From sequence record NC_054908.1: DNA of 64,000 nt. One strand, 5' to 3'. Numbering within the stretch: position 1 is the first letter of the stretch; each line of letters begins with the position of its first letter. This DNA is from Escherichia phage vB_EcoM_DalCa. Below are positions 1,758 to 38,635 of the stretch, one piece after another. A program made the translations under genes and the position numbers. Under the pieces are notes generated by a model. It saw only the letters and a program-made list of their open reading frames with translations. It was not told where the DNA came from and did not search any database.

Positions 1758-2773
1758 TGTGTTGCCTCTACATATAACTGATTTGCATATTGAATAAGTG
1801 CTTCGCGATCAGAATCAGTGATGTCTGGAATTGCATTAATGTATTCTTCCATCAACGTCTGAAGAGGTTGAACTTCAACTTCTTCACTGTCATCTGACTC
1901 GACAGAGTTATCAATCTTTGACACAACTCGTAATGAATGCACAACTTTTTCTAGTTCAGATTCGAACTTCGTTAGATTTTTGTCTACTTCAGTTACTATA
2001 ACACGTACTGATAGATTTGTAAAATCTTTATAGTCAATTTTTCCTTTAAATGGATAATGAATTCTACGATGCCAGGTAGTATTGTTTGGAATAAATTCCA
2101 TTCGTTCTGTTTCTGTATCAAACATCCAGAACCCACGAGGGTCATTCTCGTCACCTGCAGTTAGTGTCCATGGTGTCCCAATATATCTGACGTTTGCAGC
2201 CTCAGAAATAGTATGGAAGTGACCAGACCACACTTCTTTATAAGTCTTAAGGAAATCAGGTTCAAGACCATGAGATTTCATTCCTTTATAAAAATAAAAT
2301 CCATTCAGTTCCCAGTGACCAACACAAAAAGAAGCAGATGAAGTTTTGATGTGTTCAAGAATTTCACCAGTATTTTCTTCACACATCCAAGGAATTAAAT
2401 CAATTAAACATCCGTCAAAATCTACTGTAGTAGGCTTATCATATACTTTAACATTAGGATATTTAGCCAAAAGCTCAGTAGAGGCATTTGGAGTTAAAGT
2501 ATTTTTAAAGTGCATATCATGGTTTCCTACAATAGTATGTAGGGTAATACCAGCATCATCAAGCATTTGAACTATTTCACGAGCAAACTCCATAGTTTTA
2601 TGCGTGATCGCTTTTCGCACATCAAAAATATCGCCGTATTGAATCCAGGTAGTAATTCCATTTTTCTTAGAATATTCTATTGCTTGTTTAATTCCATCCA
2701 ACTGAATGGATTGAACCCACTCATCATCAGCTTTAACGCCTAAATGCCAATCACCTAAATTTAAAATTTTCAT
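1754..2773 (-). CDS. 47: Recombination/repair nuclease gp47 (Mre11/SbcD-like phosphoesterase)
   Basis: 339 aa; N-terminal LGDWHLG phosphoesterase motif, GNHD motif; length and position match T4 gp47. Confidence 0.9.
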   Translation of the reverse strand: MKILNLGDWHLGVKADDEWVQSIQLDGIKQAIEYSKKNGITTWIQYGDIFDVRKAITHKTMEFAREIVQMLDDAGITLHTIVGNHDMHFKNTLTPNASTELLAKYPNVKVYDKPTTVDFDGCLIDLIPWMCEENTGEILEHIKTSSASFCVGHWELNGFYFYKGMKSHGLEPDFLKTYKEVWSGHFHTISEAANVRYIGTPWTLTAGDENDPRGFWMFDTETERMEFIPNNTTWHRRIHYPFKGKIDYKDFTNLSVRVIVTEVDKNLTKFESELEKVVHSLRVVSKIDNSVESDDSEEVEVQPLQTLMEEYINAIPDITDSDREALIQYANQLYVEATQ

Positions 2774-2933
2774 ATATCAAGAACCGTCATTGAAATGCAA
2801 AATAAAATTATTGAAATAAATCCATCTGGAGTGCTAAAGAACCCAATCCAACATGCTCTAGTGAATAGATAAAATGCAAGAAAAAGTATCACATATCCAA
2901 GAAATATCATTATATCAAACTCCGTATAAAGCT

Positions 2934-2951
2934 AAAGGGCCGAAGCCCTTT
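2934..2951 (-). terminator. GC-rich stem-loop (tetraloop) at 3' end of a-gt, putative terminator/RNA-stabilising hairpin
   Basis: AAAGGGC-CGAA-GCCCTTT palindrome overlapping the a-gt stop; U-rich flank. Confidence 0.45.
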
Positions 2952-4152
2952 ATTTTGTAATAATGTCAAACTGTTCTTTAAAACAGAAGCTTGAATCTTG
3001 GTGCTGATACAAAAATTCATATGCTTTTTCTCGCTCACGGTCATAAAGAGCTCGGTCAGATGACAGTTCTTTAATACGTTCAAATGTTGATTCCATATCA
3101 TTTTCATCAAACCAAATGATACCGCTATCATGCGAGGTCAAAGGAGTATTATCAACACGGAATTTTAAATTTTCGCCAGTAGATTTCCAAAATACCGGAA
3201 TTGTTCCACACGCGCCAAGCTCGAGATGAGTATATTCTAAAGAACGTTGTAGATATTTTTTATCCAACTTACTCAACTGATAACCAAAACCGGATTTACT
3301 CATACGTTCAAGCATTTCGCTATTTACATAACGGTCAAGAATTTGCGTTGGCAAATTAGGAGCAATTTTAATTTGGTCTACTTGATGAAGACGATAATAC
3401 TCGTATGGAATTCCTTTTTCTTTAATAGGAATGAACGCTGGAGAACGTTCCAGACCTTCCATAATAGTACTTAGTCCTGCAGGTTTAAGATGTTTTTCAT
3501 GAAAATCAAACATCTGATAAAAACCTTTCCATGTAGTCGTACGACCAATCCAACGGTTGATATTCATGTTAATTTCAGAAACATCTTTCCAGTAGGTTGA
3601 TCGAACCTTCGCAATATCCATCGGAGGCTGAAAGTTATATACTGTCGGTGCTTCTTCAATATCATCAAACAGAGAAACTGTTTCTGGATACCATTCTTTC
3701 ATCAGAACTTTATTAAAATCGCCATTATCAGAATGGCTAAAAATAACATCAGCTCGACGAACAGTTTCTTCTAATCCCAAATTTCGACGCAAAGAAAGAG
3801 AAGAATGGTCATGTTGATAAACTACAACACGAACCGAAGGTTTAATGTTATCAATAATTTTTTTATAGTTATTAATAGTGTCTTCTTCAACTGAAGTAAC
3901 AGGAACTGAATTGATAATTAGAATATCACAATCATTTACCAGCTTAAGTGTTTTATCGTATTCTTTTGCCAATAAAACCGGAATTGAAAATGATTTATAA
4001 TCATGTGCACAGTTACGAGTAAATGATTTATCTTTAGCATAAACCAAAGTTACTTCATGACCATTTTTAATAAACCAATCACGTTGCTCAAGAGAAAATT
4101 TAGTTACACCACAACCTTCAAGACCTCGAGCCATAAAAATACATACTTTCAT
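2950..4152 (-). CDS. a-gt: DNA alpha-glucosyltransferase (glucosylates hydroxymethylcytosine)
   Basis: 400 aa, same length and position (downstream of 47) as T4 a-gt; recognised N-terminus MKVCIFMARGLEGCGVTKF. Confidence 0.85.
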   Translation of the reverse strand: MKVCIFMARGLEGCGVTKFSLEQRDWFIKNGHEVTLVYAKDKSFTRNCAHDYKSFSIPVLLAKEYDKTLKLVNDCDILIINSVPVTSVEEDTINNYKKIIDNIKPSVRVVVYQHDHSSLSLRRNLGLEETVRRADVIFSHSDNGDFNKVLMKEWYPETVSLFDDIEEAPTVYNFQPPMDIAKVRSTYWKDVSEINMNINRWIGRTTTWKGFYQMFDFHEKHLKPAGLSTIMEGLERSPAFIPIKEKGIPYEYYRLHQVDQIKIAPNLPTQILDRYVNSEMLERMSKSGFGYQLSKLDKKYLQRSLEYTHLELGACGTIPVFWKSTGENLKFRVDNTPLTSHDSGIIWFDENDMESTFERIKELSSDRALYDREREKAYEFLYQHQDSSFCFKEQFDIITK

Positions 4153-16466: not shown

Positions 16467-17375
16467 TTAAGATTTAAGTAAATCAACAATTTTAATTAAC
16501 TTTTCACGCTCAGATTTAGCTTTACTACTCAATCCAGATAGTCTGAAAATTTCATCGTCATATTGTTGAATAGAAATATTCAGCTCTTCAATTTGCTTAT
16601 TAAAATAATCAATTTGTTCAGAATGTTTTTCATTACTACAAACTGGTACAGGTTTTGTAGGTAATTTAGTTGAACTGGATTCATCCGGGCGATAAATTAA
16701 AATACAACTTGAACCAATAGGACATTTTACACCAGACGAATATTCTAATGTTCCAGATTCTTTTAAAACTTCAAAAGCTAAACAGAGATGATGCCCCATA
16801 TTGACATAATCTGTAGAGTGAGCTCTGATATAATAATCATCGCCGCGAATACTAAATTTAAAGCATTTAAGGTCTTCTGTATTATTGGTCTTAAAAATCA
16901 TTTGTTTATCTAGACCTTTAGCTAATCGAGCGCCTAATGCTAATAATCGTCGTTGATTTTCCCACAAATCCGCAATCATTTGATCGAATGATAATTTCGG
17001 CATTAGTCGACCATAAAGGTCGTATCCTTTATTATAATTGCGAAGGATTTCACTCGCATTAATACGAGACAATGCTCCAATTTTATTAAGGGCTTTCATA
17101 ATGCGATTAGATAAACCCATTCCAGACCCGTTTGTTCGCTGTAAATGTTTTTCTAATCCAAATCCAATATCAACTTTAAACTTATCTAAAATTTCTGCAT
17201 GAACATCTCTGTCAATAACATTCAAATCCAAAGTTGGGTTAAATCTATGAAAAAATTTATCTGGCTCTCCACGACGAAGTACAGTCCATTCATTCAATTT
17301 TTTATTAACTAAAGATTTAATTACTGCATTGACATTATTAATTACTACTGACATATTTTCCTCACTCAATTTCAA
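16467..17375 (-). CDS. Hypothetical protein with C-terminal coiled-coil (paralog family member)
   Basis: 302 aa; C-terminal coiled-coil-like tail. Confidence 0.55.
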   Translation of the reverse strand: MKLSEENMSVVINNVNAVIKSLVNKKLNEWTVLRRGEPDKFFHRFNPTLDLNVIDRDVHAEILDKFKVDIGFGLEKHLQRTNGSGMGLSNRIMKALNKIGALSRINASEILRNYNKGYDLYGRLMPKLSFDQMIADLWENQRRLLALGARLAKGLDKQMIFKTNNTEDLKCFKFSIRGDDYYIRAHSTDYVNMGHHLCLAFEVLKESGTLEYSSGVKCPIGSSCILIYRPDESSSTKLPTKPVPVCSNEKHSEQIDYFNKQIEELNISIQQYDDEIFRLSGLSSKAKSEREKLIKIVDLLKS

Positions 17376-17769
17376 TTTTACTAAATACGCAGAATATGAT
17401 GGAAAAAACTATATAAGCACCGCATACAGATTGAACTAATACCATTCCAAAGAACCAAACAATATTATCAAACAATGTCTGTTTTACGTCGAAAGGACGT
17501 AAACTTACAGTAATATTATCACCTTTTTCTATTGAAGAATACATCTCTGGTGAAATATATTCGCTAAATCTATAACCATCATTCAGCTCATATACAGCAA
17601 TAAACGATAAACTAGACCCCTTTCCTTGTGTTCCTGTAAAGGTATTAACTACAGTAACATCATAATCTTTATAATGCATATAATCATTAATTGCGTAATA
17701 ACCATATGCAATTACTATACATAAACAACATATCAATAAATTCAATCTTTTAATTATCAACTGTTTCAT
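17362..17769 (-). CDS. Hypothetical membrane protein
   Basis: 135 aa; N-terminal and C-terminal hydrophobic helices. Confidence 0.5.
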   Translation of the reverse strand: MKQLIIKRLNLLICCLCIVIAYGYYAINDYMHYKDYDVTVVNTFTGTQGKGSSLSFIAVYELNDGYRFSEYISPEMYSSIEKGDNITVSLRPFDVKQTLFDNIVWFFGMVLVQSVCGAYIVFSIIFCVFSKIEIE

Positions 17770-23943: not shown

Positions 23944-24330
23944 TTATTCGAGGGAAAGAAGATACTTACTTTGGTAAAACATTCCAGTAATATCATCTAT
24001 CGTGCTTTGGATGGCTGGAGGCATTTCTTTATAAATGCTGTTAGATTGGTCTAGTATACGATCAATCATTTTAATTGTGTCGGTAGGAAGTTTACTGGCA
24101 TCTGGAATTGAAGGCGTGTATTTTCTACCAGAATACCCCAAATATTGCTCACCAAATTTATCAATCAAATCTGGTAACTCAGAGAAAATAAAATCGTATG
24201 CTTTGTGTCTAGCATAACTTTTAGTTTCAAAATGTGCAGAATGAAAATAAGCTTGTGCAGCCATTAATAAACCTAAGTATTCATCTGCCTTTGAAGGTTT
24301 TCCACTTTGTGAAAAGTCGCTGAATTTCAT
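23944..24330 (-). CDS. Hypothetical protein
   Basis: 128-aa ORF followed by hairpin plus U-tract. Confidence 0.5.
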
Positions 24331-24620
24331 TCAGTCTCCAATTTAATGTTCATAATTCTAGCGTATGATTGTGCCATCTCCGCGCCTCGTTCTATACATT
24401 CAAAATCAGAAGAGCACGGGTCATTTTTATAGGTCGTTCTCATAAAACTATAGAATTGTTCAGACGATTCTACGCTTTTATTTTCAAAAAGCATATAAAC
24501 GTGCCTAATACCAGATTCCATAAATTTATCAAAATGAGGATCGACATTCGCTTCAATCGATGGAGATAAAACAAATGACAATCCTAGCATGGCAAATAGT
24601 GCCGTTGCTTTTAAGGCCAT
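24327..24620 (-). CDS. rI: Lysis-inhibition regulator rI (secreted antiholin-binding protein)
   Basis: 97 aa with N-terminal signal peptide MALKATALFAMLGLSFVLSPSIEA; length and position next to tk match T4 rI. Confidence 0.75.
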   Translation of the reverse strand: MALKATALFAMLGLSFVLSPSIEANVDPHFDKFMESGIRHVYMLFENKSVESSEQFYSFMRTTYKNDPCSSDFECIERGAEMAQSYARIMNIKLETE

Positions 24621-26044: not shown

Positions 26045-26262
26045 GTAACCTTTAAGCAGTATTCTTCTACATGCTGTTTACGACCTTTCTTATCAATAAA
26101 GGTATATTCAACGAATGTTCCAATGTAGTCTTTATCTACATCATGCGGACTATTAATTGGACATTTAGTACGGCAAATGCGTTCCCATTGACGAATAATT
26201 ACTGCCTTATTCTTTGGGTCATATGGATGTGGATAATGTATATTCATAATAACGGTTCCCAA
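26035..26262 (-). CDS. Hypothetical protein
   Basis: 75-aa ORF. Confidence 0.45.
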   Translation of the reverse strand: MGTVIMNIHYPHPYDPKNKAVIIRQWERICRTKCPINSPHDVDKDYIGTFVEYTFIDKKGRKQHVEEYCLKVTWL

Positions 26263-26711
26263 TCAACAATCACAATTTCTAATTTAGAGGAATATGTATC
26301 TAAAATCCCCTCAATAATATCCCAGTTCCCTTTACCTATGCCTGCACCAATCCTAGGCATATAGATTGTAGGTTTAATCAGTTTATTTTCACCAAACTCA
26401 TTTAATTCTAACATACAATTCATTAAAGCGGAATACTCAAAATTTGGCCCTGGTTGAAATTGAGTATAAAGGTTGAAGCAATACGCTTTATGAGTCCTAA
26501 AGTATTTTTCATAGACTGAGTAAGAACCGAGTTTAGTTACATCACCCCATTCAGTCTGTAATTTATCAGCTTCCAAAATTTTAGGGAAAGCTTTGGTTAA
26601 TTGACCCGCTACGCCTGAACCCATAGTATGAAAACAATTGCATCCATGCGCAATATTTTTACCTTCAGCGAAAAGGGCGACAATATCGCCCTTGATATAT
26701 TTTACAATCAT
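26244..26711 (-). CDS. Predicted macro-domain (ADP-ribose-binding/processing) protein
   Basis: 155 aa; motifs resembling macro domain (NAHGCNCFHTMGSGVAGQL and IGAGIGKG Gly-rich loop). Confidence 0.55.
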   Translation of the reverse strand: MIVKYIKGDIVALFAEGKNIAHGCNCFHTMGSGVAGQLTKAFPKILEADKLQTEWGDVTKLGSYSVYEKYFRTHKAYCFNLYTQFQPGPNFEYSALMNCMLELNEFGENKLIKPTIYMPRIGAGIGKGNWDIIEGILDTYSSKLEIVIVDWEPLL

Positions 26712-27049
26712 CTAGTACTCAATCCTCGATTATAAGAATCTACTAAACGGTCAACCATTGAATGACAAGCGGCTTTATCTTTCTCCTCCGCAACTGAACA
26801 TTCTAAGGTATTCCACTTTTTAGCATATCGTTTTAACAATGTATCATTTTTGTATCTGCTTGATTTATCTCTTTCTCCGTCTTTATATGCATATATTAAT
26901 TTCTGCGCAAATTCAGCTTGGCATGCTTTATTTTTCCCGCAATAATCCGCTGCAGTACGGTTTACATACTCTCTAATTTCAGTATATGATGTATCTGCTA
27001 ACACAGAAAATGAAATTAATCCTATACATAAAACCAAAATTTTAGTCAT
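26708..27049 (-). CDS. Hypothetical secreted protein
   Basis: 113 aa; N-terminal signal peptide MTKILVLCIGLISFSVLA; four Cys in mature part. Confidence 0.5.
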   Translation of the reverse strand: MTKILVLCIGLISFSVLADTSYTEIREYVNRTAADYCGKNKACQAEFAQKLIYAYKDGERDKSSRYKNDTLLKRYAKKWNTLECSVAEEKDKAACHSMVDRLVDSYNRGLSTR

Positions 27050-27587
27050 TTACTATTTCCAAAAGTTTATTATTTTTAAGGTAATTAGCCTTTTCTAGGA
27101 CTTCAGAAGCATATTTAGAACCTGCTTTAACATTCCATCCCGAATTATAAGATGATATTGCTTTTCTTATATCACCCTTATGTATATTTAACCAATAAGA
27201 AAGTTCAATGTACGCCCAGGAAGCTGAATTGGACCGTTTATTCAACATTCTTTTTATTTCAGCATCGGTCATATTATAACCAAGTTCCTTGACTCTCGCT
27301 CGCATAGTAGGCAAATAATTTTGGAACATTCCATAGGCATGATGCTTTGGTTTAGATTTTAAATTAACTCCGGCAGAGCTTTCTTGCCACAAAATAGCAG
27401 CCATTATATGACCCAATCCGCTCTTATGGATGTTTTTGTGTGTTTTATATTTTCCATCCTTAGAAAATTGTTCCCCGAATTGATACGCGTAACGCATGTT
27501 ATCGAGTTGGACATTACTGAAAGTATGCTCGGAGCTATGTGCCATCATTGAAATGGCCAATAGACCAGCGAGTAGTGCTTTTCTCAT
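27042..27587 (-). CDS. Predicted secreted lytic-transglycosylase/lysozyme-like protein
   Basis: 181 aa; signal peptide MRKALLAGLLAISMMAHS; ...AAILWQESS... motif reminiscent of SLT-domain catalytic region. Confidence 0.55.
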   Translation of the reverse strand: MRKALLAGLLAISMMAHSSEHTFSNVQLDNMRYAYQFGEQFSKDGKYKTHKNIHKSGLGHIMAAILWQESSAGVNLKSKPKHHAYGMFQNYLPTMRARVKELGYNMTDAEIKRMLNKRSNSASWAYIELSYWLNIHKGDIRKAISSYNSGWNVKAGSKYASEVLEKANYLKNNKLLEIVND

Positions 27588-27594
27588 GCTTACC

Positions 27595-28056
27595 TCATTG
27601 AGTTTTAATTACTGCTTTAGAAGCCTTTCCTGGTAAACGACGACTGTTGATAATTGCCATCCTACATTGAAGTGACGGGTCTTTGAACTTCGCGTTAGGT
27701 TTACAAACTGTAAATCCAAGCCAAAGATTTCCATCTGTGATTTCTAAACGTCCAGGACGATATTCAACCCCATCAATAAAATCCTCGTCAATGTCAGGAC
27801 GCGGAGGCATACTCAGGAATTCATTAACTTCTAAAACATGGTCTTTTATTTTATGGAATAATTCAAAAACATATGTCTCATCAATCTCCCGTTGAATTGC
27901 ACGATCAAGAAGATGTTGAGAATATTTTAGATGAAACGATGAGACTCCTGCTGCTTTTGATGCCTCACGAATCTCATTGTTAATTTGACGAAACTCCGAC
28001 TCAAAGTGACGACGAAGCTTATTTCGACGGATAAAAACTTCTGTATTGATAGTCAT
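27595..28056 (-). CDS. regB: Sequence-specific endoribonuclease RegB
   Basis: 153 aa, the length of T4 RegB; position between vs-region and denV; early-type promoter directly upstream. Confidence 0.75.
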   Translation of the reverse strand: MTINTEVFIRRNKLRRHFESEFRQINNEIREASKAAGVSSFHLKYSQHLLDRAIQREIDETYVFELFHKIKDHVLEVNEFLSMPPRPDIDEDFIDGVEYRPGRLEITDGNLWLGFTVCKPNAKFKDPSLQCRMAIINSRRLPGKASKAVIKTQ

Positions 28057-28073: not shown

Positions 28074-28102
28074 TGATAGAAAAATTATACCACAGTCAAG
28101 AG
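28074..28102 (-). promoter_or_regulatory. T4 early-type promoter upstream of regB
   Basis: Minus -35 GTTTACT, 17-bp spacer, TGG-TATAAT. Confidence 0.55.
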
Positions 28103-28115
28103 GAAAAGTAAACAG

Positions 28116-28436
28116 TTATTCTTTAAATCTAATCAATTTATTCATAGACTTTGAAACTTCTGCACGAACCTCATGTAGATTTTTGAGCTGTTCAAGACGC
28201 TGCTCATAGTAAGCAATTTCATCTTCTTCGAGACAGTCCTGTGAATCTTCTTTAAGATAACGTGCATAGTCCTGGAAAGCGTTACGAACTACTTCCTGGA
28301 AGTCATCAAGACTTTGAATTTTCTTAGGAGCAACAGATACACGACGAGGGGCAGTATAATACTCATAACCAAACCCTGCGCTTAATTGAGCCATTAGTAT
28401 TTTTCCTCTAGTTGGAACACAGCACGACAAGCCCAC
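28116..28436 (-). CDS. Hypothetical protein
   Basis: 106-aa ORF. Confidence 0.45.
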
Positions 28437-28660
28437 ATACTGGCTTCTTTGAGTTTCATTTTAGCAATAGTTAACTGATCGAGGCTTTCGGCGTAATTCT
28501 TCGCGAGTTCATCATCTTCACAGCTATCAAATGCTTCCCAGAATTCATCATATAAAGCATCAAAGATAAGCCCTAAACGAACTTCAGCATCTTTGATAGC
28601 ATTCACTTTACTGATTTTATCGTCAGTATGTGGTTTATAACCTTTAATGTCTTCAATCAT
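28394..28660 (-). CDS. Hypothetical acidic protein
   Basis: 88-aa ORF. Confidence 0.45.
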
Positions 28661-38051: not shown

Positions 38052-38450
38052 TCAGCCTTCATCAACAATAGTGTGAGTATTAGCATTTACGATTTGCCAC
38101 CAATCAAAGCGATTAGAATCCATCGGTTTGTTTTCATTTTCTTTGATAATGTCACGGAGTTCATCTTCAGAGAATGCTTTAGCAATTAAATCGGTATACC
38201 CACCACGGGGATAATAATTATCACCTGCAAACAAAAGGAAATTTACCTTCCCGGAAGCAACATATGCTTCCTTAGGATACTTGTTTCCTGCGTGGTCAAC
38301 CACTTCAATATAACGGTAAGGAATATCGGTTCTTTCAACCCATTGCCATGCCGCCGCAGGGGAATCGAAAGCATCTACACCTAAACGATTATCTTCATCT
38401 TTAGACGGATTATTTTCGTAATCCGCATATACATAATATTCAACGTTCAT
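38052..38450 (-). CDS. Hypothetical acidic protein
   Basis: 132-aa ORF. Confidence 0.5.
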   Translation of the reverse strand: MNVEYYVYADYENNPSKDEDNRLGVDAFDSPAAAWQWVERTDIPYRYIEVVDHAGNKYPKEAYVASGKVNFLLFAGDNYYPRGGYTDLIAKAFSEDELRDIIKENENKPMDSNRFDWWQIVNANTHTIVDEG

Positions 38451-38635
38451 TATTCACCTTTAGAAATTTTATCCATAACAATAGCAATTAAACCAATTAA
38501 AAATGCTACTACAAGTGAAAAAACATTTTCTGCCGTAGTCAATAATCCGCATATAAATCCAACAAACATTGAAAAACTGAAAGCGGAAGCAGAAATTGCA
38601 ATAGCAACATTTCGAATTAATTCACAACGTTTCAT
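38450..38635 (-). CDS. Hypothetical small membrane protein
   Basis: 61 aa, two hydrophobic helices; early-type promoter upstream. Confidence 0.45.
   Translation of the reverse strand: MKRCELIRNVAIAISASAFSFSMFVGFICGLLTTAENVFSLVVAFLIGLIAIVMDKISKGE

Follow-up and report, generated by a model that had tools for sequence, protein, structure and literature searches.

Among the early genes of T4-like phages, vs raises the question of whether its product, a "valyl-tRNA synthetase modifier" according to T4 annotation, works in the cytoplasm as this label implies or is exported together with the product of the adjacent gene vs.1. The label is among the oldest T4 host-takeover annotations and has been spread by PHROG-based pipelines to more than a thousand phage genomes, those of Acinetobacter and Proteus phages included; all 13 vs copies that we examined directly follow the gene for a predicted periplasmic murein-cutting enzyme. 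Here the question is addressed in a 64,000-nucleotide stretch of Escherichia phage vB_EcoM_DalCa (NC_054908.1), referred to throughout as the window. The source phage is T4-like (Tequatrovirus), its DNA being 99.5% identical to that of Tequatrovirus genomes. A preliminary description of the window had placed two adjacent ORFs at 26708-27587, and both were found there, on the minus strand, opposite a plus strand with only short ORFs (≤55 aa). By homology these are the already named T4 genes vs.1 (T4p112; UniProt P13311) and vs (T4p111; UniProt P13310), of which the present pair are orthologs, and no new genes are involved. The genes are known and their interest is modest, amounting to one testable reinterpretation; the surprise is limited to vs, a long-labelled cytoplasmic tRNA synthetase modifier that looks exported. 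The locus comprises the following features:

28084..28112, minus strand: promoter-like site upstream of regB (TTTACT, 17 nt, TG-TATAAT); consensus match only
27595..28056, minus strand: regB (endoribonuclease), upstream neighbour; Pfam REGB_T4, E 1.4e-68
27042..27587, minus strand: vs.1 CDS (181 aa), product predicted to be the precursor of a putative periplasmic lytic transglycosylase; 180/181 residues identical to T4 Vs.1; phrog_600, E 5.6e-69
27042..27049, minus strand: vs.1 stop and vs start overlapping by 8 nt (AAATGACTAA), read from the sequence
26708..27049, minus strand: vs CDS (113 aa); 111/115 identical to T4 Vs; phrog_1256, E 7.5e-40
26244..26711, minus strand: tk.4 / adfM (macro-domain protein), downstream neighbour; Pfam Macro; 4-nt overlap of its start with the vs stop

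The order regB-vs.1-vs-tk.4 matches that of T4, the 8-nt vs.1/vs overlap included, and constitutes an early operon on the minus strand. The site at 28084..28112 is likely its early promoter, having the top score in our scan (10/12 matches plus an extended -10). Promoter-like matches showed no excess over shuffled sequence (14 observed against 15.2 expected). Because vs has no clear Shine-Dalgarno sequence and overlaps vs.1 by 8 nt, translational coupling is likely, and Vs would be translated straight after Vs.1 via the overlapping stop and start codons. T4 tk.4 has been identified as the anti-DarTG2 factor AdfM (bioRxiv 10.1101/2025.11.20.689424). Neither Petrov 2010 nor the UFV-AREG1 genome paper makes a statement on vs.1 or vs. 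The account that we consider probable is that vs.1 and vs form an early pair, specifying an exported, predicted GH23 lytic transglycosylase and an exported Vs held by disulfides.

Export was assessed from the N-termini of the two proteins, whose predicted signal peptides were assigned by an n/h/c heuristic:

27534..27587, minus strand: Vs.1 signal peptide, residues 1-18 (MRKALLAGLLAISMMAHS then SEH), cleavage predicted
26996..27049, minus strand: Vs signal peptide, residues 1-18 (MTKILVLCIGLISFSVLA then DTS), cleavage predicted

Both N-termini open with a basic n-region, continue with 12-14 uncharged hydrophobic residues and end in a small-x-small site. The calls were made with our own n/h/c-region rule rather than SignalP, requiring a basic n-region, an uncharged hydrophobic h-region of ∼8–17 residues and a small residue at each of positions -3 and -1. 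This rule passes only six of the window's 167 ATG-initiated ORFs (≥50 aa), with vs.1, vs and rI among the six; rI, whose cleavable signal peptide has been demonstrated experimentally (PMC8385771), provided a positive control. The rule also passes 80 of 83 database relatives, the remaining three being fragments or N-terminally truncated or aberrant sequences. The signal peptides previously noted on both ORFs are thus borne out, within the limits of a heuristic, and on these features and their conservation both Vs.1 and Vs look Sec-exported. The twin-arginine motif of Tat export is absent from both N-termini.

These segments diverge faster than the mature parts yet retain their physical character, identity to the window protein being lower over residues 1-18 than over the remainder (44% vs 66% for Vs; 38% vs 59% for Vs.1). 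Every distant relative of Vs.1 retains a signal-like segment, among them those from phages of Felixounavirus, Ackermannviridae, Krischvirus and Bragavirus and from Aeromonas and Acinetobacter phages. All four differences between DalCa and T4 Vs lie within the signal segment, which is two residues shorter here (SVLA for SASASA), and the mature part is identical; the two Vs.1 proteins differ by a single residue (A72 here, G in T4).

The case for Vs.1 as an enzyme rests on its domain, its signature residues and its predicted fold, located as follows:

27126..27407, minus strand: SLT (GH23, family-1 lytic transglycosylase) domain, Vs.1 residues 61-154; Pfam SLT
27381..27383, minus strand: Glu69 codon (GAA), predicted catalytic acid in W-Q-E-S-S; read from sequence

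An SLT-like motif had been proposed for the second ORF, and the Pfam SLT search (PF01464) confirmed it, with residues 61-154 scoring 23.4 bits against a gathering cut-off of 21.3 (E 4.8e-5) and all 23 aligned relatives matching as well (E ≤0.01; best 1.3e-7). The family-1 signatures of Blackburn and Clarke reportedly consist of G-L/M-M/F-Q and A/S-Y-N-x-G plus a distal Tyr, and the corresponding positions were found in Vs.1 as G86/F88/Q89, Y147/N148/G150 and Y159. Across the 23 aligned sequences, down to 41% identity, E69, G86, F88, Q89, Y147, N148, G150 and Y159 are invariant and S70 nearly so; the signature residues (E-S, G-x-x-Q, Y-N-x-G and the distal Tyr) are still visible in relatives that are ∼30% identical. 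In the structure model (pLDDT 87), Vs.1 is predicted to adopt a lysozyme-like GH23 fold with E69 at the C-terminal end of helix 59-70. Vs.1 is, by these predictions, an SLT/GH23 family-1 lytic transglycosylase. Such enzymes use a single catalytic acid and cleave the MurNAc-GlcNAc bond non-hydrolytically, so that the products end in 1,6-anhydro-MurNAc. That vs.1 resembles SLT was published in 2006 (PMC1524935), and a published assay of murein cleavage by Vs.1 was not found in our literature search. The distinction drawn earlier from endolysin e and the gp5 lysozyme domain also holds, since Vs.1 belongs to GH23 and those two to GH24 (PF00959), as given in the Tequatrovirus genome paper (PMC10236363).

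It could be argued that Vs.1 has kept the fold and lost the activity, acting as a murein-binding protein only. The Pfam score is indeed marginal (23.4 vs 21.3), and a profile search of the PDB by sequence gave no significant match to any solved structure, so that no solved lytic transglycosylase was reached. The (near-)invariance of the signature positions described above nevertheless points to selection on catalysis, and we regard an inactive Vs.1 as very improbable.

In the mechanism that we propose, the Vs.1 precursor would carry a Sec signal peptide, be cut after approximately residue 18 and reach the periplasm as a basic, single-domain enzyme of 18.8 kDa, where Glu69 would serve as the catalytic acid in cutting host murein. 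Its most likely task would be to trim or turn over the sacculus to a limited extent while infection proceeds, rather than to lyse the cell, because it is present before lysis and dispensable in the laboratory; envelope remodelling, as the preliminary description put it, is a reasonable generic guess for its role.

The same description offered lysis inhibition as a further possibility, which found no support in the T4 data: vs and vs.1 belong to the early RNA class and their products to the middle protein class, both proteins having been detected in T4 infection, and both genes are non-essential. A related and more specific idea is that Vs.1 contributes as an auxiliary factor to lysis or to its inhibition, for example as an enzyme held inactive by a signal-arrest-release (SAR) anchor until the holin depolarises the inner membrane. 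Nolan et al. 2006 guessed "some role in cell lysis" for vs.1, rI, the gene for the antiholin, is situated 2.4 kb downstream, and the hydrophobic stretch of Vs.1 (ALLAGLLAISMMA) is rich in Ala, Gly and Ser, a SAR-like composition. SAR segments, however, are uncleaved, weakly hydrophobic transmembrane segments of ∼18–22 residues with no signal peptidase site. The h-region of Vs.1 spans only ∼13 residues, with a small-x-small site (A-H-S/S) behind it, as is typical of a cleaved signal peptide, and its relatives have h-regions of 12–17 residues with A-x-A-type sites, so that Vs.1 does not fall in the SAR endolysin class. Timing and genetics also argue against a lysis role, in that the RNA is early and the protein middle class rather than late, and transposon data show vs.1 to be non-essential in T4, whereas no insertions are tolerated in the holin gene t. 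T4 e mutants fail to lyse, which means that Vs.1 is unable to replace the endolysin. T4 RI itself was once thought to have a SAR domain and was later shown to be cleaved (PMC8385771). Overall, a part for Vs.1 in lysis or its inhibition appears improbable.

Vs is the more unusual member of the pair, and its family membership is clear from phrog_1256, 97% identity to T4 Vs and precomputed PF26829 matches for all six database homologs. Its principal features are:

26711..26995, minus strand: mature Vs, 95 aa, ∼11 kDa, predicted four-helix; AF2 model and alignment
26939-26941, minus strand: Vs C37, invariant Cys
26921-26923, minus strand: Vs C43, invariant Cys
26798-26800, minus strand: Vs C84, invariant Cys
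26765-26767, minus strand: Vs C95, invariant Cys

Vs has Cys at positions 8, 37, 43, 84 and 95, the last four of which do not vary in 14 sequences reaching down to 26% identity, with a spacing of CX5-6C plus CX9-10C. The AF2 model, built from seven sequences, has four helices with the Cys pairs flanking two hairpin loops, at low confidence (pLDDT 62). Searching Foldseek with this low-confidence model returned chance helical matches only, with none below E 0.86; given both limits, no conclusion on the fold is drawn and any pairing of the disulfides is putative. On our proposal Vs would be exported via its Sec signal peptide and fold into an 11-kDa helical protein with two disulfides; the four Cys could alternatively bind metal. 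A PDB sequence search with Vs gave no match below E 0.5, and NCBIfam and PADLOC gave none for either Vs.1 or Vs. An HMM search of 1.84 billion representatives with a Vs profile returned seven matches, all of them phage Vs and none cellular, in a search that overlooked a diverged Vs branch later recovered through synteny. The protein is basic (pI ∼9), with an estimated mature mass of ∼11.0 kDa (10.93 kDa for residues 20-113, to which D19 adds ∼0.1) and a precursor mass of 12.95 kDa. The earlier characterization of this ORF as a "Cys-containing periplasmic protein" accordingly stands as regards its cysteines, four of them invariant, while the periplasmic location is predicted only and is at odds with the ValRS-modifier annotation.

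That annotation implies a cytoplasmic role, with which a periplasmic Vs conflicts, and the predicted export makes binding or modification of valyl-tRNA synthetase (ValRS) topologically problematic. The alternative is that Vs is the cytoplasmic tau polypeptide that binds host ValRS, with an N-terminus that is unused or exports part of the pool, and that its position next to vs.1 reflects ordinary packing; this is possible, but we lean against it. In vivo phenotypes tie vs to valS, and an exclusively periplasmic Vs would explain neither these phenotypes nor the binding of tau to ValRS. The label is standing in both the T4 annotation and PHROGs, and binding of the tau peptide to the cytoplasmic host enzyme goes back to Muller and Marchin 1975/1977, as relayed in PMC8076793. 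A basic Vs is also compatible with tRNA or synthetase contact, and the operon in which vs lies is functionally mixed (RegB nuclease, AdfM macro domain, thymidine kinase).

Recent T4 genetics bear on the same alternative. Deletion of vs impairs plaques specifically on minimal glucose medium, the first clear growth phenotype for this gene, and in transposon data from minimal medium vs was the most strongly depleted gene of the screen (log2FC -2.19), a defect that fits a role in translation or amino-acid supply. The value for vs.1 was -0.87, and its phenotype may be simple polarity on vs; insertions in either gene yielded ∼10-fold fewer reads than those in neighbouring genes, and we count this parallel, with the drop of both in minimal medium, towards the linkage of the pair.

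Several properties of Vs are nonetheless difficult to reconcile with a cytoplasmic protein. No full-length family member, down to 26% identity, lacks the signal-like N-terminus, which remains hydrophobic while its sequence and length drift freely, indels being confined to this segment. Both Karamvirus copies sampled have a lipobox (ALSGC) in place of the signal-peptide segment, a feature useful only to an exported protein. The Cys spacing looks unlike that of zinc knuckles, which is typically CX2C or CX4C. A leaderless Vs made from an internal start was considered and rejected, as the leader's only GTG and TTG codons in frame are not preceded by a ribosome-binding site and Met does not recur before residue 98. 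Tau has a reported size of ∼10 kDa, closer to processed Vs than to the precursor, and signal peptides are processed on the periplasmic side of the inner membrane. Full-length T4 Vs with an N-terminal His tag formed inclusion bodies (PMC8076793), which we count in favour of export. Our literature search for primary evidence linking the vs ORF to the genetic vs locus yielded secondary mentions only.

The data favour export of Vs. A broader proposal, which we put forward tentatively and with the odds against it, is that Vs is an envelope protein, exported and held by disulfide bonds (in Karamvirus, a lipoprotein), and not, or not only, a ValRS modifier, coupled with Vs.1 in a periplasmic cassette of the Straboviridae that includes phrog_4957 in many genera, with Vs regulating, inhibiting or targeting Vs.1. 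The ValRS label would on that proposal reflect either an ORF assignment based on map position and size or the processed 11-kDa Vs meeting ValRS after cell breakage. Were Vs indeed to act in the envelope, a textbook annotation would be due for revision, and there would be a function for the conserved early "periplasmic cassette" that T4-like phages carry.

Support for such a cassette comes from linkage. In all 13 vs.1-vs loci examined, which cover nine named genera and two phages without a genus assignment, vs starts between -8 and +7 nt from the vs.1 stop. In 6 of the 13 a third ORF with a signal peptide (phrog_4957) directly follows vs, which also speaks for export of Vs; phrog_4957 was absent from the 64-kb window by tblastn. 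This conserved adjacency suggests a partnership, in which Vs might bind, restrain or target Vs.1 in the envelope, an interaction that we think possible yet doubtful. T4-like genomes are broadly syntenic and their early genes are tightly packed, vs and tk.4 overlapping as well, which makes adjacency weak evidence of partnership. Moreover, ∼40% of vs.1-bearing phage records are without vs, so Vs is dispensable for Vs.1, and in Ackermannviridae (Cba120), Felixounavirus (KhF3), Aeromonas phiAS4 and RB43 the ORF after vs.1 is not Vs-like.

Compared with known systems, Vs.1 falls with the family-1 (GH23, SLT-domain) enzymes, among them Slt70, MltC and MltE of E. coli and Slt, MltF and MltD of P. aeruginosa. 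It is only 13–19% identical to the structures of this family and, as a small one-domain protein, lacks superhelical, LysM and lipoprotein modules. It comes from a phage gene expressed early in infection, and its activity is a predicted one. The small, specialized lytic transglycosylases of secretion and conjugation systems (EtgA, VirB1, IpgF, P19 type) differ in that no partner such as EscI is evident for Vs.1, and we know of no trans-envelope machine that requires it. The vs.1-vs arrangement resembles periplasmic muramidase-inhibitor pairs (T4 gp5 lysozyme/Spackle, T6SS Tse3/Tsi3 and Tge/Tgi, Ivy/MltB) in layout only; Vs showed no sequence or fold similarity to the known inhibitors Spackle, Ivy, PliC/MliC, PliG and Tsi/Tgi, the fold comparison being weak given the low-confidence model. 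The T4 antiholin RI, encoded by an early gene of the same region (24327-24620), is a small protein that reaches the periplasm by means of a cleavable Sec signal peptide (PMC8385771), as is predicted for Vs and Vs.1. RI is not homologous to either Vs or Vs.1, and it binds the holin. To our knowledge, neither Vs nor Vs.1 has a link to the holin. With cleavage at the predicted sites, the mature N-termini would give the semi-tryptic peptides DTSYTEIR for Vs and SEHTFSNVQLDNMR or SSEHTFSNVQLDNMR for Vs.1.

The preliminary description had placed two ORFs at 26708-27587; both were present on the minus strand with exact coordinates, and vs.1 and vs are known genes already.

27042-27587, minus strand: vs.1, 181-aa ORF
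26708-27049, minus strand: vs, 113-aa ORF
26244-26711, minus strand: tk.4 ortholog, the next gene downstream of vs, with a macro domain (Pfam Macro, E 2.9e-6)

Judged by sequence similarity, the window is a Tequatrovirus, and the 1.9 kb surrounding vs.1-vs had 99.5% identity to Yersinia phage PYps5T and 95-99% identity to ∼490 T4-like genomes. Vs.1 and Vs were identical to their T4 counterparts at 180/181 and 111/115 residues, respectively; the T4 reference names the genes "hypothetical protein" and "valyl tRNA synthetase modifier", and its gene order is regB-vs.1-vs-tk.4. The pair was flanked by regB (Pfam REGB_T4, E 1e-68) and tk.4, with the top promoter-like site of the area on the minus strand immediately upstream of regB. 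The plus strand opposite the pair held only short ORFs without support, and its promoter and terminator matches did not exceed shuffled-sequence level. In T4, vs.1 and vs RNA is early, and the proteins were detected in the middle class (PMC9697503 supplement).

The SLT-like motif claimed for Vs.1 held up: the protein scored 23.4 bits against Pfam SLT, just above the cut-off of 21.3, and 23/23 aligned relatives matched the same family. In this alignment of 23 sequences E69, G86, F88, Q89, Y147, N148, G150 and Y159 were invariant and S70 nearly so, residues that make up the family-1 lytic transglycosylase signatures. The AlphaFold model had a pLDDT of 87. A single acid was conserved in the alignment, and no Asp following it was, a pattern that would point to the mechanism of a transglycosylase and not to that of a lysozyme. 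The SLT link is not new: similarity of vs.1 to SLT was reported for six T4-like phages by Nolan et al. 2006, who cited earlier PSI-BLAST matches (PMC1524935). Direct search found Vs.1 in 2012 phage records; in Ackermannviridae, Felixounavirus, Aeromonas phages and RB43 there are vs.1 genes with no vs, and each of them encodes a signal peptide. The vs.1 ORF of phage myPSH1140 was left unannotated in the public record (278-826 in its locus, L014).

Signal peptides were called by an explicit n/h/c-region rule of our own and then checked by conservation, with the following positive control.

24327-24620, minus strand: rI antiholin ortholog, phrog_1246 "lysis inhibition" (E 4.9e-35)

The cleavable signal peptide of rI has been demonstrated by experiment (PMC8385771). 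The claim of signal peptides on both ORFs was borne out: the rule was passed by 6/167 window ORFs with an ATG start and 50 aa or more (rI included) and by 80/83 database relatives, the three failures being fragments or sequences with a truncated or aberrant N-terminus. Both N-termini are textbook signal peptides, MRKALLAGLLAISMMAHS/SEH in Vs.1 and MTKILVLCIGLISFSVLA/DTS in Vs (predicted cleavage at the slash). Residues 1-18 were less conserved than the remainder in Vs (44% versus 66%) and Vs.1 (38% versus 59%), and the indels of both families sit in this segment. All 4/4 differences between Vs here and T4 Vs fell within the predicted c-region, leaving the mature parts identical. Elsewhere, a 61-aa ORF at 38450-38635 on the minus strand (phrog_1692, function unknown) also passed the rule (MKRCELIRNVAIAISASAFS/FSM), and a 135-aa ORF at 17362-17769 on the minus strand (phrog_2547, function unknown) has a strongly hydrophobic N-terminus, MKQLIIKRLNLLICCLCIVIAYG; its product may be membrane-anchored or secreted.

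Vs was found in 794 phage records by direct search, and a profile search run exhaustively against 1.84 billion proteins returned phage Vs only. Synteny uncovered a diverged second branch, only 26-30% identical yet still matching phrog_1256 with E-values between 1e-28 and 1e-34. Its genes immediately follow vs.1 in Gelderlandvirus, Jiaodavirus, Karamvirus, Krischvirus, Bragavirus and Acinetobacter phages, and it contributes ∼385 further records. Ten positions were invariant across both branches (M1, C37, C43, G58, L71, C84, C95, Y106, G109 and L110), four of them Cys, and every full-length copy had a signal-like N-terminus. In 13/13 loci the distance between the vs.1 stop and the vs start was -8 to +7 nt. 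In two Karamvirus copies (L012 2349-2675 and L014 826-1152) a lipobox, MKKLFVLL..ALSGC/KMD, replaces the A-x-A site, and these are therefore predicted lipoproteins. The public S16 record starts its "valyl tRNA synthetase modifier" at an ATC (2358 in L010); the real ATG at 2349 overlaps vs.1 as TAATG. In Klebsiella phage vB_KpnM_GF the vs ORF (L011 2346-2666) was left unannotated in the public record. In 6/13 loci the gene after vs is phrog_4957 (function unknown; 133-146 aa), again with a signal peptide, which makes three predicted exported proteins in a row in these Gelderlandvirus, Jiaodavirus, Karamvirus, Acinetobacter and Bragavirus phages.

L010 2666-3067, L011 ∼2660-3060, L012 2672-3091: phrog_4957 ORFs after vs
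L013 2588-3013, L014 ∼1149-1568, L016 1200-1640: phrog_4957 ORFs after vs

In most copies the mature protein begins with WEKLPGYP and two Cys are conserved; phrog_4957 is absent from the window and from T4.

Described beforehand as a Cys-containing periplasmic protein, Vs does have the Cys and an export-like N-terminus; what had been missed is that it is T4 vs, labelled a ValRS modifier (PHROGs "valyl tRNA synthetase modifier", E 7.5e-40). Predicted Sec export contradicts this label, because ValRS is cytoplasmic. The ValRS-binding peptide tau has a reported size of ∼10 kDa, nearer to processed Vs (∼11.0 kDa, computed) than to the precursor here (12.95 kDa), which suggests that the ORF may have been assigned correctly and that tau may be cleaved Vs; the conflict over topology would thereby grow, not shrink. 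There are also old in vivo phenotypes that connect vs with valS, an argument for some contact between Vs and ValRS in the living cell. The rival reading, in which Vs really does modify ValRS in the cytoplasm, therefore retains some probability, though we think it less likely than not. The label itself traces to tau, a peptide binding the ValRS of the host (work of Muller and Marchin, cited by PMC8076793).

We consider it likely that a predicted exported, cleaved Vs.1 transglycosylase is made together with an exported, disulfide-stapled Vs. Vs.1 would be exported by Sec and then cleaved, yielding a small soluble periplasmic lytic transglycosylase, active from early or middle infection, that would trim host murein, the lysis enzyme being another protein; Vs would be made in step, exported too, and fold into a disulfide-stapled helical protein of ∼11 kDa. 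That Vs binds, restrains or targets Vs.1 is a far more tentative idea. The likeness of the pair to Spackle and gp5 or to T6SS effector-immunity pairs is in layout only, and sequence and fold searches matched Vs to no known inhibitor family. The observation in the preliminary description was confirmed and its interpretation partly supported; the one point that deserves a bench test is that Vs, invariably coupled to Vs.1, appears to be exported.

In a 2025 transposon screen of T4 (bioRxiv 10.1101/2025.11.20.689424), vs.1 and vs were both non-essential, with mean insertion reads in liquid LB of 22.6 and 26.6, against 179 for regB, 290 for tk.4 and 652 for vs.3. Of all genes, vs showed the strongest depletion in M9-glucose (log2FC -2.19, adjusted p ∼0), and vs.1 was mildly depleted (log2FC -0.87, p 0.0055, adjusted 0.155); plating on M9-glucose is poor when vs is cleanly deleted. 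The common cost is compatible either with a common function or with polarity of vs.1 insertions on translationally coupled vs. Insertions in regB were M9-enriched in the same screen (log2FC +1.17, p 0.049, n.s. after correction; Extended Data Table 6, sheet S8), which, with the downstream pair depleted (LB versus M9-glucose), hints that RegB processing affects its expression. According to PMC8076793, full-length T4 Vs with an N-terminal His tag is insoluble in E. coli, as expected from a blocked signal peptide and unpaired cysteines; we regard this as weak evidence.

Among the neighbours, T4 tk.4 has been renamed adfM and identified as an anti-DarTG2 factor (bioRxiv 10.1101/2025.11.20.689424); many genome records still call it "phosphatase". 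A terminator-like hairpin, AAGGGCGACAATATCGCCCTT, with a T-rich tail lies antisense to the tk.4 5' end just past the vs stop (26673-26693, plus strand), and is probably due to chance, since 3 such matches were observed in the region versus 2.3 expected. At 28116-28436 on the minus strand, the mechanical ORF list gave a 106-aa ORF with a GTG start; its phrog_2037 match covers residues 36-106 only and T4 vs.3 has 92 aa, so the real start is probably the ATG at 28394, which overlaps vs.4 (28394-28660) by a single base, the final one of its stop codon.
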